Below, one piece after another: positions 14,412 through 22,489 of a stretch of 22,489 nt of DNA. The notes beneath the pieces were generated by a model, which had not been told where the DNA came from, made no database searches, and was given only the letters and a program-made list of their open reading frames with translations. How positions within the stretch are numbered: the stretch's first letter is position 1; each line of letters begins with the position of its first letter. Origin of the DNA: a virus (lineage: Duplodnaviria > Heunggongvirae > Uroviricota > Caudoviricetes); the IMG/VR virus record IMGVR_UViG_2778261588_000007, positions 1 through 22,489 of that record, one strand, 5' to 3'. Both the position numbers and the translations under genes were made by a program.

Positions 14412-14897
14412 CTACCTGATATTACTGCTACTGTTGCATGTTACCGTGTTTCCAAATCCTGAATTGCAGTTTGTATATGTGTCAACGCGTGTTGGGTAAG
14501 GTTGAGTTATAACAGGCTGGCGCGCTTTTTGCTCGATCGCTTGCATTGTGTTTACAGCCTGATAATTCAATAAAGCCTGCTGGAATGATTGGCTTTGTGC
14601 TATTTGTTGGGCTTGTTCTTGGCTTTGTAATTGAACATAAAGATTCTGAAGCTCAAGTCTTGCCTGTGCGTCACTTATCTTGCCTTCATTGACACCTTGC
14701 CCGAGCATCTTTGCAGCAAGGACATACAGCTTAGGTGTTGGTGCTGATGCCATGCGTGAGTCGTTCTTCACACTGGCATCAAGGCAATTAGCCATATCGC
14801 TAAGCTTTTGATAGCGTTGTTCGCAACTTGCTTGATAGTCACTTACTTTTGCGCATCCAACCAGCAGAAGCGGGATAATTAACAGTGATTTTTTCAT
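14412..14897 (-). CDS. secreted lipoprotein of unknown function (candidate superinfection-exclusion factor)
   Basis: Start chosen at MKKSLLIIPLLLVGC (ATG at 14897) with AAGGAG about 9 nt upstream; lipobox L-V-G-C; mature part has a Gln-rich predicted helical segment and a C-terminal C-x9-C pair. Sits downstream of mnt on the same strand, at the position of sieA in P22. Confidence 0.7.
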   Translation of the reverse strand: MKKSLLIIPLLLVGCAKVSDYQASCEQRYQKLSDMANCLDASVKNDSRMASAPTPKLYVLAAKMLGQGVNEGKISDAQARLELQNLYVQLQSQEQAQQIAQSQSFQQALLNYQAVNTMQAIEQKARQPVITQPYPTRVDTYTNCNSGFGNTVTCNSSSNIR

Positions 14898-14967
14898 ATG
14901 GTTAACTCTCCTTAGTTTTTCACAGGATATCATGAAGGCTATGCCATTTTAGCCGGAAACTAGATTT

Positions 14968-15234
14968 CTATGTTTCCTTTTTATTATTGCTATACATGGT
15001 CTTAAGCGTTTCAAAAACCATTTTCTTAACCATATCAGATTGTTGTTCTGCCATACGCTCTGCATCGTCAATGTAAACGGATGCAGAGCTTTGTTTAGCC
15101 AATGATTCTTCAATCGCTGCAATTATCTCTGAGTTCAGCGACCTGTTATTCATCTTCGCACGCTGTTTAATTTTCGCGTGGAGTTCATGCGGAAGTCTCA
15201 AGTGAAACTGCGCCTCGTCGTATTTGCTGTACAT
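14968..15234 (-). CDS. mnt: Mnt-like ribbon-helix-helix repressor
   Basis: 88 aa from the internal ATG at 15234; FHLRLPHELHAKIKQRA..NRSLNSEII.AIEESLAK and DDAERMAEQQSDMVKKMVFETLK align with remembered P22 Mnt (83 aa) along its whole length. Confidence 0.8.
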   Translation of the reverse strand: MYSKYDEAQFHLRLPHELHAKIKQRAKMNNRSLNSEIIAAIEESLAKQSSASVYIDDAERMAEQQSDMVKKMVFETLKTMYSNNKKET

Positions 15235-15355
15235 CCTTGATGCCTCACCAGTTGGGTGGAATGGCATCGTAACCTACTGGATAAATACTCAATAGTACCA
15301 TTTCGGTATGCAATCACATCATGGTTGCATCATATCATTCGTCTGGAGCAATGAA
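15235..15355. promoter_or_regulatory. divergent intergenic region between mnt and tailspike; probable promoters and operator
   Basis: 121 bp non-coding; imperfect inverted repeats CCAGTTGG...CCTACTGG (15247-15279) and TGCAATCA...TGGTTGCA (15309-15329); tailspike RBS GGAG at 15345-15348. Confidence 0.35.
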
Positions 15356-17224
15356 ATGTCAGATATCACCGCAAACTTAGTGGTAGGGATGCCTGCGCAG
15401 CTTTTCACGCTGGCACGCTCATTTAAAGCAAATGCCAACGGTAAAATCTATCTTGGGCTACCAGATACCGACCCTACAATCCCAGCGAATCAAATCCCTG
15501 TTTATATTGAAAGTGAAACTGGAGATCTGATTCCGACTGCTCAGCCGATAGTCATTAACGCGGGTGGGTATCCTGTTTACAACGGGCAGATATCAAAGTT
15601 CGTTACTGTGCAGAATTACAGCATGGCTGTTTACGACGCCTATGGATCGCAGCAGTTCTACTTCCCTGACATTGCAAAATACGACCCAGATAAGTTAAGG
15701 CAACAGCTTGAAGGGAGCAATGGCGCTGGATTAGTTGGATTCGATAAATCAGTTGATTACGCAGATGATACGGTTGGGGGTACGCTAAAAAATGTTATAT
15801 TCGTCAATCCTGATATGTATACAACATTACAGGATGCGATTGATTATGCCGCATCTTTAACCGGGCTAGAGCACTCCCCAAGCACTGCTGCTGGTCATCC
15901 AGACTGGATACAACCAAATACTGTATGCAAAGTTGTCAGATTAAATGGAAAGAAATACCCCATAAACACAACATTACATGTTTACGGTGATGTAAGCATA
16001 GATGCAGAATTTGGAGGGGTATATCTCACGGATGACTTCATAGCGGATTCTTCTGGGTATGCTGTTAAATGCGATAAAGGAACAGGTAATCAATACGCTG
16101 GGCACATTAGCAATCTTTTAATTGACGCCCGCGCAAAGACTGTTAATGGATTTAAAATATCTGATGGTTATGCCAACAAGTTAGATGGTATTTACGTAGC
16201 CAACGTTGATGGTCATGGCATTCATATCGCTGGCGGCATGGGTGTTCATCTCATGAAGTTTTACGCGGTAGGTGTATTAAAACCTACGAACCCCCTAAGT
16301 CAAGCCCATATTATTGAAGGCAGCGACCATCAGGTAAGCATGGGTGAAGGTCGTTATTTCCGATTTGGGACGTGGGTGAGGGGTGGCGGTAACAATCGTA
16401 TCGATAAAGTACATAACTGGGGTATGTATGACGACTCGGTAGCTGACCAAAACTCAAGAATGAAGTGTTGCTTTGTTGTGCAAAACTCGATAAACAACTC
16501 ATTCAACCAATGCTTTGCAGACTCTCCGTCAAAATGGGACTACACGAAGGCTAATTTAGATTCGGTAGATGGTTATATTAACGGCGGTATTGGTTTCTTT
16601 GTCGATTCGGGAGCATCGGGTAATACGTTTTCTCAATGTCAGACATTCGTGAATATGAATGCATTCAATGCTGCGGGACTGTCTTCTTACACTGCATCAT
16701 TAATGCCGTTTGCCGTTGGTAGCGTTAACTGCTCATTTGTTGAGTGTGGAAACTCAAACTCACCAGCATGGACAGCAAGGTTGATAAACCATATTTACTC
16801 TATAGACCAGTCGTTTACAAACATCCTGGCAGCTAAGAACTTTGTTGGGATAGAGTACGATATGTTTAGCAATAGCACAATTTTTAGGAGAAGCGTAGGT
16901 GTTCCCCTGCTTGTAGCGTCTCCGAAATTTGACACCCCCGGTGCATCGTATGCGCCTGACTTTTCTAATGCAGCGTATGTGTCAGCAACGGTAACTGGCG
17001 ATGTAACAATAACCCCAGCAGCATTGTCAAATGCGTTAACTGGGTATGTAGAAGTTACATTAGCTGTTTATTCGGCGGCATCAAAAACAATAACATTCGG
17101 GTCTAACGTTAAACTTGCATCAAATACACCGTCGCTTTCATTTTCAGGAACGCAGGTATTTAGGCTTTCAACAATAAACGGCGGCACTCAATGGTTTTGC
17201 AGACTTATTGCTAACTACACATAA
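15356..17224 (+). CDS. tailspike protein: P22 gp9-like head-binding N-terminal domain fused to a divergent receptor-binding domain
   Basis: Start at ATG 15356 ([43 protein letters not shown]), 622 aa. The first ~115 residues match P22/Sf6 tailspike N-termini; the remainder has no P22 similarity I can recognise. Confidence 0.9.
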
Positions 17225-17253
17225 AAAATGGCCCGATGTTTTGGGCCTTTTTT
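17223..17253. terminator. bidirectional intrinsic terminator between the convergent tailspike and gtr operon
   Basis: AAAAAA - GGCCC..(8 nt loop)..GGGCC - TTTTTT, lying between the tailspike stop (17224) and the 3' end of the type-specific gtr gene (17258). Confidence 0.7.
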
Positions 17254-17257
17254 AATT

Positions 17258-18685
17258 TTAACAAACTCTATCGCCATACACGACGATAATATCTTCACCA
17301 ATTTTAAATACATTATAATATCTTGTTTTTATTATTGGTGATGATTTTTTTTCACAAACCTCATTTAACTTGTTAACTTGTACTGTTTTTATCCATGGTG
17401 CCAAATTCTTAACACTTAATTGCTGCATCATTGATACAGCAATCCATGGTACAGCAGGGCTATACACAAATTTGAGGAACGGTGTTGCCTCAATCATTTT
17501 CCAAGTAATAGGAGAGTCGTATATCCTTCCATAAGTGTATACCTCGCCGTTAAAGTCAAGCCTTCCCAAATCATTAGCCACCATCTCCATGACAAATTCC
17601 TCATATTTCCTTTGCTCTTTTATGGCATTTGAAAATTGGAATGAAGTGGTTATGGTGATAAACAACATTACTACAGAAATAAAATAAAAAGATTTTTTTC
17701 CGAATAATTTATATATGGAAAAAATAACTATCGCTATGGATGCTGACGCGCCTGATAGAACCCTTATATCTGTAATCCCTTCCTTTAATAAAAATGCTGG
17801 TCCAGGCAATGCTAATAATAGCGCTAATGGTGATAATAAATTGGATGAGCACTCTAAAAACCCTAGGGATAACTGATGTTTGACCTTTTTAACATAACAA
17901 ACAAAATAGGATAACAATCCAATGTAAACAGGAATCAAAAAAGATATCCCAATGGGTTCTATATATTTAAAAGTCTTATTAATAGATTCATAAAGAGATG
18001 ATGGTATGTCTGCGAATGACACCATTATAGATCTATTGTCAGCACCATATTTCATTATATAAAACATAGTGACATAATATAATGCATATGTTACTACGAA
18101 TGTCAGTGCAAGATGATATGATTTGTTTTTCCCATTACCAAATAAAGCATTGTATGCAATTAATGATATAAATATGTTTGCGCAAGGCTGGTATAAGCTT
18201 AAGCATGAAAATAAAGAAACAATGGATAATAATGACTTTGGAAATGATCTAATGTCAAATACAAAGAATGACAGCATACATAATGAATTTGCTAAAATCA
18301 TCGTTAATGCGTCAAATTGAAAAGACACGTTTTGTATAAACAATGGACTCACAAAAATGATTGTGAGCATAATGGATATCTGCAGAGAGTCTTCTTTTTC
18401 AACAAGATAATTACAAATATAATAAATTATTGCTGATGCAATGAATATACCAAAGAACAACGGAAGAGGAGCAGCGCTTGGTAATAAATCAAAATTAAGA
18501 GAAAAAATATGCATTACAAAATCAGAAAGTGGCCTACCAAGCCCTCCCCATGCAGAAAATGAATATACAGACCTTGCCACATCATCCCTATAAAGGACAT
18601 CAGCAGACACTATTGGGTAACAAAATATAAATATAATTGATAATGGTATGTAAAAATATTTAGAATTAAACATTCCTATTTTCAC
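17258..18685 (-). CDS. type-specific O-antigen glucosyltransferase (GtrC / Gtr-type), polytopic membrane protein
   Basis: 475 aa, many predicted TM helices, strongly AT-rich coding sequence; start overlaps the gtrB stop; third gene of a gtrA-gtrB-gtr(type) operon. Confidence 0.8.
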
Positions 18686-19595
18686 CTTTCTTTAGTATGT
18701 ACTTTGGTCTTTTTTTGGTTTCTATGTATATGCGTCCAATGTATTCACCAAGGACACCAATCCCAATCAATTGAATGCCGCCAAGGAAAAGTATGGAAAC
18801 CAACAGTGACGGGTATCCAGGAACACTATTACCGAAAAGAATCTTATCTAAAATCATCCACGCGCCATAAATGAATGACAGGCTGGCGACAGCAAGTCCG
18901 ATGTATGTCCACATGCGCAATGGGAAAGTTGAGAAGCTTGTTATGCCTTCCAGTGCCAGATTCCATAGCTTCCACCCATTGAATTTTGAGTTGCCGGCAA
19001 CGCGTTCAGCTCTTGCATACTCAACAACATCAATTTTACCGCCAACCCATGACAAGACGCCTTTCATGAAAAGATTGCGCTCAGGAAGCAATTTAATGTT
19101 TTCAACAACTTCTCGCGACATCAGGCGAAAATCACCCACGTTCTCTTCGATTTTTGGGTTGCTAATCTTGTTGTGTAGCTTATAGAACCACTCAGCCGAT
19201 TTGCGCTTTAGCCTTCCATCGGTAGATCGGTCTGTTCTCTTAGCCAGAACCATATCAGCGCCATCCTGCCATTTTTGAATGAGGTGAGGGATGACATTGA
19301 TAGGGTCTTGCAGATCAACATCAATTGGAATGACCGCTTCCCCGGTTGCATTATCAAGCCCTGCAAACAGGGCTGGTTCTTTACCAAAGTTTCGTGTAAA
19401 TGACAGCGGAACAACTAGAGGATCTGAAACGGACAGAGCGTTAATGATTGACTCCGTAGCGTCTTTGCTACCATCATTTATAAAAACAATTTCCACTTCA
19501 TATGGCTTCAACTCTTCGAATTCACGTACCGTTTTATAAAAAATAGGTATCGCTTCCTCTTCGTTGAAGACAGGAACGACCAGAGATATCTTCAT
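18666..19595 (-). CDS. gtrB: bactoprenol glucosyltransferase GtrB (GT2 family)
   Basis: 309 aa; N-terminal GT-A fold signatures ([25 protein letters not shown]) and two C-terminal TM helices; high similarity to remembered GtrB/YfdH. Confidence 0.9.
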
Positions 19596-19954
19596 TTCGC
19601 ATCCCTAAAGACAATGAACTTTGAATAGACGAAACCGCACACTAGGCTGATGGCGGAGAAGGTGACAAGAGTGACAATTGGAGGAAGTGCACATTTATCG
19701 GCAGCCCATCCAACAGTAGCACTCAGTGTTCCCATGAATCCTACATATAACATGTAGCGCATCGTTGTAGTCGAAGCTTTGAATGTGAATTTTGCATTCG
19801 CGAAGAAGCTAAAGCTCACAGCCACAACGAAACCTGCGAAGTTTGCAAGAGCCTGATTGGTGTGCGCGGCATAGATACATACACCAAAAACCACCCAATG
19901 TATAAGTGTGTTCAGCACACCAATCGAGGTGTACTTTGCAAATAGCTTTAACAT
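19592..19954 (-). CDS. gtrA: GtrA flippase-like small membrane protein
   Basis: 120 aa, four predicted TM segments; [20 protein letters not shown]... matches GtrA/YfdG; ATGA overlap with gtrB. Confidence 0.9.
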
Positions 19955-20100
19955 TTCTTCTATCAGCTAATAATCAAAGGCATGAAGTCTATCATCCAAG
20001 CATCAATCGATCGATGACTTGCTGTGGTTGATGAGACAAAACTGAGATACACAAGGCTTTGTGACATTCGATAGTGGTTAAGGTCGATCACTCCACCTTT
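19955..20100 (-). promoter_or_regulatory. gtr operon promoter region, overlapping the 3' end of int; contains GATC sites and ATAG/TCGAT motifs
   Basis: GATC at 20009-20012 and 20086-20089; repeated TCGAT/ATAG-containing motifs (ATCGATCGATGA, TTCGATAGTGG, GGTCGATCACTCC). Confidence 0.35.
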
Positions 20101-21245
20101 TCATCAAGCCAGTCCGCCCACCACTGCATCATTTCTCTGCGCTTATCGAGATACTGAGCATGGTTGTAAATCCCACGCACAGATCCGCCGTTGGCATGTG
20201 CCAGTTGCACTTCAATAGCATCAGCAGGCCATTCGTGCTCGTTCATAATCGTGCTGAATTCATGCCTGAATCCGTGACCGCTTTCCAGACCCTCATAGCC
20301 GATTTGTTTGATCACAAGCAGTACCGCGTTCTCGCAGATTGGCTTCTTCTTATCGTTGCGCCCGGCAAAAACAAACTCTGATACTGGTTTGGTGATTGAG
20401 CTTAGCGTAGTGAGAAGTTCAACCACCTGGTCTGACATAGGAACCACATGAATTTTGCGTCCTTTCATCACACTGGCGTCGATGGTGATAATCCTGTTTT
20501 CAAAATCGACGTTCTTCCATAGCATGGAACGAAGCTCTTTCGTTCTTAGGGCTGTGTAGCGTAAAACTTTGGTCGCAATGAGCGATACGATACTTCCTGA
20601 AAATGTTGCCAGTGCTTTGTTGAATGCAGGGATCTGGTCTGCAGGAAGAAACGGGAAGTTCTTCTTGCGGTATCCCTTCATGGCGTCAGCAAGGTCAGGT
20701 GCCGGGTTATATTTAGCCCTACCAGTGACAATAGCGTAACGGAAAACCTCGCCGCATCTTCTGCGGGCTTTGTTGGCTCGCTCCATTGCACCGCGATCTT
20801 CAAATCTGCGGATTACTTCCAACAGTTGCATCGGCTCAATATCCTGAATCTCAAGACCGCCGATGATGGGTAAAATGTCGTCATCAAACATTTTGGCAAG
20901 TTCAGTTGCATAGCCTACTGACCAGACTTGCTTCTTGTGCTCGTACCATTCCTTGTAAATCGCACTAAAGGAATTGTTGTTAGACGAAGCCTTTTTCGCC
21001 TTTACCGGATCGATGCCAACCGAGATGTCTTTCCTCGCAGTCCATGCTTTATCCCTTGCCTCTTGCAAAGTCATAAGCGGATATTTTCCGACGGTCAGGA
21101 TTTTCTCCTTACCGTCAATCTTGTAGCGAAGCTGCCATACCTTTTTCCCGGATACAGGGACATAAAGGTACAGGCCATTACCATCGAGAAGGCGGTATGG
21201 TTTTTCTTTCGGCCTTGCTGCTTCAATCTGCTTAACGGTGAGCAT
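20088..21245 (-). CDS. int: tyrosine recombinase / prophage integrase (argW-associated, IntS-like)
   Basis: Start chosen at MLTVKQIEAARPKEK (ATG at 21245), 385 aa; C-terminal catalytic region GHGFRHEF...LAHANGGSVRGIYNHAQY (His-x-x-Arg and Tyr nucleophile); lies directly beside a tRNA gene. Confidence 0.9.
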   Translation of the reverse strand: MLTVKQIEAARPKEKPYRLLDGNGLYLYVPVSGKKVWQLRYKIDGKEKILTVGKYPLMTLQEARDKAWTARKDISVGIDPVKAKKASSNNNSFSAIYKEWYEHKKQVWSVGYATELAKMFDDDILPIIGGLEIQDIEPMQLLEVIRRFEDRGAMERANKARRRCGEVFRYAIVTGRAKYNPAPDLADAMKGYRKKNFPFLPADQIPAFNKALATFSGSIVSLIATKVLRYTALRTKELRSMLWKNVDFENRIITIDASVMKGRKIHVVPMSDQVVELLTTLSSITKPVSEFVFAGRNDKKKPICENAVLLVIKQIGYEGLESGHGFRHEFSTIMNEHEWPADAIEVQLAHANGGSVRGIYNHAQYLDKRREMMQWWADWLDEKVE

Positions 21246-21406
21246 GGGTAAAAATCCGGTGGGTAAAATTATTTTATCCACTTTTTACCCGTCATGGAGT
21301 GCGGCTGTCAACGATCTGACGCGAACCATTACGAACTGTTAATCTACGGAAGGCTTGATATTCAGGGGATTTTGCGGACTGGTACGGATGGGAGCGAACT
21401 GATAAA

Positions 21407-21481
21407 TGGTGTCCCCTGCAGGAATCGAACCTGCAATTAGCCCTTAGGAGGGGCTCGTTATATCCATTTAACTAAGAGGAC
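21407..21481 (-). tRNA. argW: tRNA-Arg (anticodon CCU), argW
   Basis: 75 nt on the minus strand: GTCCTCT acceptor stem, anticodon arm AGCCC-CTCCTAA-GGGCT (anticodon CCU), T arm GCAGG-TTCGATT-CCTGC, 3' CCA encoded. Folded by eye into a cloverleaf. Confidence 0.9.
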
Positions 21482-21556: not shown

Positions 21557-22489
21557 TTATGCTGGGTTTTTATCATTTTTCTTAATGTTTTCCGCACGTT
21601 CTGCTTTTTGGCGTGCTTCTGCTTTACGCTTGTTGCTCATGTCGTTACGAATCTGTGCATGACTCATTAACGCGAAGATAAAGGTGCCGCCGCAGATGTT
21701 CCCCGCTAAAGTAGGTAGTGCGAAGGGCCAGATGAAATCGCTCCAGTGCAGCGTGCCGTTAAACACCAGATAGAGGATTTCAACAGAACCGACAACGATG
21801 TGGGTGGTGTCACCCAGTGCAATAAGCCAGGTCATCAATATAATCACCACAATCTTTGCCGCACCCGCAGCAGGAAACATCCAAACCATAGTGGCGATCA
21901 GCCAGCCGGAAATGATCGCGTTGGCAAACATCTCGCTGGGGGTGTTCTTCATCACATCCATGCCGATTTTGACAAATGCATCGCGAGTTTCTTCATTGAA
22001 GATAGGCATATATTCAAATGCCCATGCAGCAATACCTGTCCCGAGAATATTACCCAGCAGCACGACGCCCCATAATCGCATAAGTAAGCCGACGTTGCTC
22101 ATTGTCGGTTTTTGCATGACGGGTAGTACCGCAGTCACGGTGTTTTCGGTAAATAATTGCTGGCGGGCCATAATGACGATAATAAAACCAAAGGTATAAC
22201 CGAGATTCTCCAGTAAGAAGCTGCCTGGCACTCCTTCCAGTTCGACATGAAATATCCCTTTTGCCAGTAGCGAAGCGCCCATCGACAGACCCGCCGCAAT
22301 GGCTGACCACAGTAGCGCCATTGCGTCGCGTTCCAGCTCTTTTTCACCATCCTGGCGGATATGCTCATGAATTGCCATCGCCCGGGAGGGGAGTCGGTCT
22401 TCATCTATTTCTATTTTTTTGCCGCGCTCTTTTTCTTCGCTCTCAACTTCAATTTCGTCGCTGTGTTGATCAATTTTGTCGTTGTCCAT
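21557..22489 (-). CDS. yfdC: inner-membrane formate/nitrite transporter family protein YfdC (chromosomal flank)
   Basis: 310 aa with an acidic N-terminus and six TM segments; matches remembered E. coli YfdC, which neighbours argW in K-12. Start codon is at the window edge. Confidence 0.85.
   Translation of the reverse strand: MDNDKIDQHSDEIEVESEEKERGKKIEIDEDRLPSRAMAIHEHIRQDGEKELERDAMALLWSAIAAGLSMGASLLAKGIFHVELEGVPGSFLLENLGYTFGFIIVIMARQQLFTENTVTAVLPVMQKPTMSNVGLLMRLWGVVLLGNILGTGIAAWAFEYMPIFNEETRDAFVKIGMDVMKNTPSEMFANAIISGWLIATMVWMFPAAGAAKIVVIILMTWLIALGDTTHIVVGSVEILYLVFNGTLHWSDFIWPFALPTLAGNICGGTFIFALMSHAQIRNDMSNKRKAEARQKAERAENIKKNDKNPA

Follow-up and report, generated by a model that had tools for sequence, protein, structure and literature searches.

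Introduction

Mosaic tailspikes are well known from P22, Sf6, HK620 and Det7. Modular exchange is textbook knowledge for P22-like phages, in which it is a normal way to shift host range, and surveys of E. coli have already catalogued receptor-domain exchange in tailspikes (PMC10408124, PMC8432352). The locus described here thus brings no new principle. What is new is the predicted target of the receptor domain, the OgN3 O-antigen, together with its distribution over five N-terminal anchors and the finding that it is tightly linked to a single gtrC allele.

The tailspike of the window (the whole 22,489-nt stretch of DNA that was analysed) resembles P22 gp9, Sf6 gp14 and the HK620 tailspike in its head-binding N-domain, the position of its linker, the place of its gene before the gtr and int genes, and a receptor domain that is predicted to be a beta-helix. 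It differs from all three in that this receptor domain has no sequence similarity to theirs, ends in another C-terminal domain and has another predicted glycan. The explanation that we consider quite probable is that a head-binding anchor has been joined, in a P22-like prophage tailspike, to an acquired beta-helix module that binds and cleaves the OgN3 O-antigen, with the neighbouring gtrABC operon glucosylating that same polymer.

The Prophage and Its Tailspike Gene

In the window lies a prophage of the P22-like (Lederbergvirus) type that has integrated into E. coli DNA at argW. Its genes follow the order small terminase, large terminase, portal, scaffold, coat, gp4, gp10, needle (gp26), gp14, gp7, gp20 and gp16. 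After gp16 come a lipoprotein-like gene, mnt, the tailspike gene, a terminator hairpin, the convergent gtrC-gtrB-gtrA, the integrase gene, argW and the host gene yfdC. Pfam and PHROG assignments and comparison with the P22 map place the tailspike gene at the close of the P22-type morphogenesis block, ahead of the conversion genes and the integrase. The features that frame it are as follows.

14968-15267, minus strand: Mnt/Arc-type repressor gene, an immI remnant with no ant gene (PF03869, PF11423; P22 map compared)
15343-15346, plus strand: Shine-Dalgarno sequence GGAG, read directly, 9 nt 5' of the ATG at 15356
17230-17247, unstranded: GC-rich hairpin with T-runs on both strands, a bidirectional terminator between the tailspike gene and the convergent gtrC
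20088-21281, minus strand: IntS-type integrase (PF00589, PF13356, PF22022; the same gene is annotated intS in strain MLI106K1)
21407-21481, minus strand: tRNA-Arg(CCT) gene argW, the prophage attachment site (ARAGORN; layout identical in MLI106K1 and in loci L004-L008)
21557-22489: host gene yfdC, following argW

An annotated terminator is found in the same place in P22, between gene 9 and gtrC. The immI region compares less closely: in P22 orf59a lies next to mnt, whereas the window has a 173-aa ORF there (14412-14933, minus strand, between gp16 and mnt) and lacks an ant gene. This ORF carries a lipoprotein-like signal, LLVGC, and its sole match is phrog_6067, a family of unknown function.

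Read from the sequence, the ORF at 15356-17224 (plus strand) is an intact tailspike gene, in which 622 codons encode 622 amino acids beginning with MSDITANL. An alternative, longer ORF starts at 15308, yet the full-length homologues are all 622 aa. The exact 622-aa protein is present on at least 18 public contigs, where it is deposited under a generic name, and is encoded for example in assemblies GCA_032330775.2 and GCA_002459785.1. Among the loci listed, all five that extend far enough show the same argW/yfdC/gtrABC context. The structural genes of the prophage share 95-96% DNA identity with those of coliphages Dewey, IME10 and APC_JM3.2.

A P22-Type Head-Binding Domain and a Sharp Junction

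The first part of the tailspike is readily assigned, and its boundaries are as follows.

15356-15694, plus strand: P22-type head-binding (virion attachment) domain, tailspike residues 1-113 (PF09008, E 8.6e-56)
15695-15730, plus strand: linker, residues 114-125, with a recombination junction at 15711/15712 (gene nt 356/357, codon 119), from DNA alignment

PF09008 (Head_binding) matches residues 1-113 over all 113 profile positions, and a search of PDB chains gives matches confined to residues 1-117, the strongest being Sf6 gp14 (1.6e-48), followed by P22 gp9 constructs (1e-33 to 1e-39), with further hits to related tailspikes. BLASTP against P22 gp9 aligns residues 1-113 at 62% identity (E 4e-40) and nothing past residue 113, where the best later segment reaches only E 0.85. 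Likewise, phmmer (E<=1) retrieves no homology to gp9 residues ~120-666 from the PDB, and after residue ~117 the window tailspike has no sequence alignment to P22 gp9, Sf6, HK620 or any solved structure. The preliminary description had called residues 1 to about 115 P22/Sf6-like and the remaining ~500 residues different from gp9, and both statements are borne out; the C-terminal part does not align along its length with gp9.

The preliminary description had also placed the domain swap at the linker of P22-like tailspikes, and DNA comparisons locate it there, just after the head-binding domain. Six P22-like tailspike genes from complete E. coli genomes align with nt 1-356 of the window gene at 97-100% identity and not beyond. 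An alignment with strain TBE6 is identical as far as ...CAGCTTGA / ...CAACAGCTTGA, after which the two sequences diverge and are unrelated. The coincidence of these end points places the crossover at 15711/15712, in codon 119. From the other side, the tailspike genes of four Ackermannviridae phages match the window gene from nt 388 on, at 79-80% DNA identity. Just past the junction lies the motif L-R-x-x-L-x-x-x-x-G-A-x-L-x-G, which is common to many otherwise unrelated spikes. Conserved motifs flanking receptor domains have been described in lytic genera as likely recombination sites and were not found in Lederbergvirus prophages (PMC10408124).

An apparent mosaic could also arise by fast divergence of a gp9-type domain with no swap at all, and the fold class shared by the two proteins (see below) would fit such a history. 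The breakpoint does not: identity of 97-100% up to nt 356 followed by nothing refutes gradual divergence, beyond it the gene shares 79-80% DNA identity with Ackermannviridae genes whose N-termini are entirely different, and identity to solved tailspikes is 10-15%. Fast divergence is accordingly left with a vanishingly small probability, and the tailspike is a genuine mosaic with a swapped receptor domain.

The Receptor Module and Its Predicted Fold

Residues 118-622 belong to no family in Pfam or PHROGs v4, and a PDB sequence search returned matches to the anchor and no solved structure of the receptor module. When 1.84 billion cluster representatives were scanned exhaustively with HMMER, only 34 relatives of the module appeared at E<=1e-3 and only six at E<=1e-30, which makes the receptor-module family small. 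A word-indexed homologue search with a profile that included distant relatives added two fragments and nothing more. An AlphaFold2 monomer model built from an 11-sequence alignment (mean pLDDT 74.9) divides the module into three parts.

15797-16756, plus strand: predicted right-handed parallel beta-helix, residues ~148-467, a high-confidence part of the model and the predicted glycan-binding and glycan-cleaving body
16775-16924, plus strand: segment modelled with no confidence, residues 474-523 (50 residues; pLDDT about 25)
16925-17221, plus strand: predicted C-terminal beta-sandwich, residues 524-622 (model strands, pLDDT 75-90), the most variable part among homologues, with 98-100% identity to P0002 and 50-72% to P0005, P0009, P0013, P0019 and P0021

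In structural comparison the model matches solved pectin-lyase-fold right-handed beta-helix proteins, including the tailspikes of P22, Sf6 and HK620, with 10-15% identity between these solved tailspikes and the module in the structural alignments. The beta-helix fold for which structure prediction had been proposed is thus what the model returns for residues ~148-467. The earlier claim that the receptor domain is unrelated to gp9 needs qualification: it holds for the sequence but not for the modelled fold, a right-handed parallel beta-helix as in P22, Sf6 and HK620. The module would then have no sequence relation to gp9 and belong to the same broad fold class. By sequence, the module has relatives in other phages (78-90% identity, and 58-66% in Proteus) but none among solved structures.

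Several residues, D257, D324, H353, W355, Y358 and D389 in a D-S-P motif, remain unchanged even in relatives of 22-33% identity. The three aspartates D257, D324 and D389 are candidate catalytic residues. It is conceivable that the module binds its glycan without cleaving it, or modifies it, for example by deacetylation, and leaves the backbone uncut. Such a role would be compatible with the lack of a Pfam or PHROGs family, with catalytic residues that are candidates only, and with the presence of non-enzymatic beta-helix adhesins such as PfbA among the fold matches. Against it, the invariance of the three aspartates and of a His-x-Trp motif in relatives of 22-33% identity is as one would expect for an active site. 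The structures of the P22, Sf6 and HK620 tailspikes are also among the fold matches and, to our knowledge, all characterised P22-like tailspikes (these three) are endoglycosidases. We therefore regard a non-cleaving module as improbable and prefer to view it as a putative endoglycosidase.

One Module Behind Several Anchors

The receptor module is found behind at least five N-terminal anchors. With the P22 head-binding anchor it occurs in the window and in other E. coli prophages, where it is 89-100% identical, and behind PF18668 N-termini it is 82-90% identical. In the Ackermannviridae it forms part of the first tailspike gene, of 993 aa, of Salmonella phage vB_SalM-ps4 and Escherichia phages YX22, BME3 and vB_CECAV_050, with 83% identity over 505 residues; the label TSP4 is given to this tailspike by gene order. 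These proteins of ~993 aa have a long anchor and a branching N-terminus, as opposed to the 113-aa P22 head-binding domain of the window. A fourth anchor is that of P0023 (WP_025651153-like, 720 aa), a tailspike from an E. coli prophage that we take to be epsilon15/phiV10-like (Uetakevirus-type) by its N-terminal sequence and prophage context. Here the module is 78% identical, with central beta-helix blocks at 98-100%, and the hosts are likewise OgN3; the anchor differs, and the next gene encodes an acyltransferase in place of the gtrABC of the window. Finally, (prophage) proteins of Proteus mirabilis carry the module at 58-66% identity. A published definition of a receptor subtype asks for at least 30% identity over at least 60% of the receptor domain (PMC10408124), and the relatives share 58-90% identity over 96-100% of 505 residues and so fall within one subtype.

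A windowed identity profile shows that the receptor module is itself mosaic. To the MLI106K1 allele, residues 241-320 show 68-78% identity, but to metagenome-derived and epsilon15-like prophage alleles they show 90-100%. The pattern changes at residues 521-622, which are 90-100% identical to P0002 and 50-85% identical to those metagenome-derived and epsilon15-like alleles.

The OgN3 O-Antigen as the Likely Target

To name a host O-antigen, the O-antigen cluster was taken from MLI106K1, the closest complete genome (tailspike 88% DNA identity, GtrC 99% protein identity). Both published OgN3 PCR primers match its wzy gene (L011 10021-11187) exactly and give the published 189-bp product (PMC5643014), and primers for OgN5 and OSB16 have no match in this gene. 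Among 5426 complete E. coli genomes, 80 carry this wzy at 99.8-100% identity. In the global ETEC collection, OgN3 accounts for 8 of 55 untypeable isolates and is missing from the classical O1-O188 scheme (PMC5643014).

Among the matches listed, eight of the nine complete E. coli genomes that carry the module also carry OgN3 wzy, compared with the 80/5426 overall, in an association that rests on relatives whose modules are 78-89% identical and on genomes that are not phylogenetically independent. The hypergeometric P is 1.4e-14, or 1.2e-13 with apparent sibling pairs collapsed, both values being inflated by shared ancestry. The ninth carrier, XPFI_3_2, has a tailspike match equal to that of YJR in coverage, identity and score, with no wzy entry among the matches listed. 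The carriers differ in host and country of origin, and the module resides in P22-like prophages at argW in some and in epsilon15-like prophages elsewhere in others; the presence of two prophage types among them argues for selection by the receptor. The different polysaccharide specificity postulated for the swapped domain is therefore supported, with OgN3 as the likely target named from this genome association.

The naming of this O-antigen is not uniform. The primers and probe developed for wzy of the ETEC challenge strain TW11681 likewise fit the MLI106K1 gene, and TW11681 is among the 80 wzy genomes; it has been published as O19:H45, with its wzy, accession LC223608, called O19-specific (PMC6192177). 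By the order of accessions in PMC5643014, LC223608 is the wzy of the OgN3 control strain. O19 was considered as the host O-type and dropped, as the gene has exact sites for the OgN3 primers and no match for the OgN5 pair. One strain with OgN3 wzy is named CE-O153H30, and the tailspike TSP3 of phage AV101 is reported to be O153-specific. Because the sources thus use O19, OgN3 and O153 inconsistently, the genotype name OgN3 is used here.

The OgN3 cluster comprises two GT2 genes, one GT4 gene, wzy, wzx and a gene for a 588-aa protein without a Pfam match; gnu lies upstream of galF. It contains no recognisable sugar-synthesis genes and no pathway for uronic acid or another special sugar, which suggests a neutral polymer of common sugars; the literature search yielded no structure for the OgN3 repeat unit. 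Such a polymer would be expected to be cut by hydrolysis rather than by beta-elimination. A lyase mechanism was considered and judged unlikely, given a cluster without a uronic-acid pathway. In two lysogens that carry the tailspike-gtrC block described below, the O-antigen cluster is damaged: wzx is interrupted by IS1 in MLI106K1 (L011 12144-14533) and wzy is truncated in TST3 (H144), and these strains may be rough.

There is some reason to ask whether the module is directed at another polysaccharide, such as capsule (K-antigen), colanic acid or ECA, with the OgN3 association reflecting strain lineage. Ackermannviridae tailspikes can be capsule-specific, as the Vi-specific ones are. The best PHROG match of the window tailspike is to "tail spike protein with colanic acid degradation activity" and the WceF chain 6tgf also matches it. 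However, these matches cover residues 1-156 and 12-134, respectively, that is, the anchor and linker and not the receptor module. Lineage is a poor account of carriers as varied as these, in two unrelated prophage types, and horizontal transfer has placed OgN3 and other novel O-clusters in separate lineages (PMC5643014). In addition, the module is linked to an O-antigen-modifying gtr operon or, in the epsilon15-like prophage, to an acyltransferase gene. Another polysaccharide is accordingly given little likelihood, and OgN3 O-antigen remains the target that we prefer. For the four Ackermannviridae phages that carry the module, the literature search found no glycan or per-tailspike host assignment; their listed hosts (S. 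Enteritidis, APEC IMT5155 and ATCC 15597) are not known as OgN3, and each phage has several tailspikes.

Linkage to the gtr Operon

Downstream of the terminator, the convergent operon has the following genes.

17258-18673, minus strand: gtrC, serotype-specific glucosyltransferase, 471 aa from MFNSKY (PF14264)
18666-19954, minus strand: gtrB (18666-19595) and gtrA (19592-19954) (PF00535 and PF04138)

The GtrC of the window is 99% identical to that of MLI106K1, 49% to that of strain Ecol_545 and 25-29% to that of P22. Its gtrC allele is present in 4 of 5426 complete E. coli genomes (TST3, CFSAN061763, CFSAN061768 and MLI106K1), and in all four it directly adjoins the receptor module, on its downstream side. 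In these genomes gtrC has 98-99% DNA identity and the modules only 84-88%, a pattern showing that module and gtrC appear to travel together as a cassette. This arrangement supports the view that spike and gtr operon address the same O-antigen. The presumption that the spike targets the O-antigen modified by the adjacent operon thus finds backing in both the OgN3 genome association and the gtrC allele linkage.

Taken together, the favoured explanation can be put as a sequence of steps. As in P22 and Sf6, residues 1-113 would attach a putative trimer to the tail machine of the virion, and the horizontally acquired module of ~500 residues (beta-helix plus beta-sandwich) would take the place of the P22-type endorhamnosidase. 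The module would bind OgN3 O-antigen and presumably cleave it as an endoglycosidase, so that the virion could work down the LPS layer, and the convergent gtrABC would then glucosylate the same O-antigen in the lysogen. Trimer formation, glycan specificity and hydrolytic activity are properties that we infer for this tailspike. As a candidate OgN3 recognition protein it may find use in typing, in phage host-range engineering and in the preparation of O-antigen fragments; OgN3 is the O-antigen carried by the human-challenge strain TW11681.

A Second Module on the Same Backbone

The same head-binding allele also precedes a second, different spike, at 97-100% DNA identity. Of the six genomes in which only the head-binding part matches the window, five are likewise OgN3. 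Ecol_545 (L012 7001-10280) combines the same argW prophage backbone with a spike of 603 aa, unrelated to the window spike in its C-terminus, and with the GtrC that is 49% identical. In TBE6 (L010 6001-8938) the spike is 85% identical to that of Ecol_545 and is followed by an acyltransferase gene. This second module (RBD-B) is 72% identical to AV101 TSP3 (WJJ54145.1), which is experimentally active on "O153" E. coli (PMC10791037). Although the AV101 TSP3 relatives in Ecol_545 and TBE6 share head-binding allele, argW backbone and OgN3 hosts with the window, beyond residue ~125 the two modules have no sequence similarity.

The second module probably serves as another spike against the same O-antigen. 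This leads to the hypothesis that two spikes can stand in for each other on one O-antigen and that each is accompanied by a modification gene of its own. A further and rather doubtful step would be to see these as "attack and disguise" cassettes that contest OgN3 E. coli, the window module with its GtrC on one side and the second module with its own GtrC or acyltransferase on the other, in which each glucosylation would block its own spike only. If this were true, the cassettes would let phages get round each other's seroconversion, and Escherichia phage EcoIv28_Lewi (OX461087.1; L016 3602-6254) would be a snapshot of replacement. This phage has a complete AV101-TSP3-like spike followed at once by a 259-aa ORF that corresponds, at 81% identity, to the C-terminal 250 residues of the window module and looks like a relic of receptor-domain replacement.

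State and Mosaicism of the Prophage

The start of the window (1-~858) is the 3' part of IS100 (IS21-family), including IstB (1-780), and thousands of E. coli records contain IS100 copies 99% identical to it. Next to it lies the small-terminase ORF (796-1215), which falls short of the PHROG profile by ~28 N-terminal residues. By its sequence the prophage is probably defective and unable to package DNA. With IS100 in the small-terminase gene, the tailspike of this genome may therefore never enter virions, though its ORF is intact.

Two further loci, L005 and L009 (Logan contigs ERR15500046_0 and ERR15405261_129), carry an identical tailspike-gtr-int block after a second integrase, the early genes ERF and Ead/Ea22, a 135-aa gp10 fragment and gp16. 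In these the intervening morphogenesis genes appear to have been deleted, or the prophage rearranged. In the window, about the first 1340 of the 1449 nt of the large-terminase gene (1184-2525) have no megablast match in the closest coliphages; the matches of these phages begin at ~2525, which marks another mosaic boundary. G+C content is 30-36% over gtrC (17000-18500), 42-44% in the tailspike gene and about 50% in the morphogenesis genes, and these steps are consistent with a separate origin of each block.
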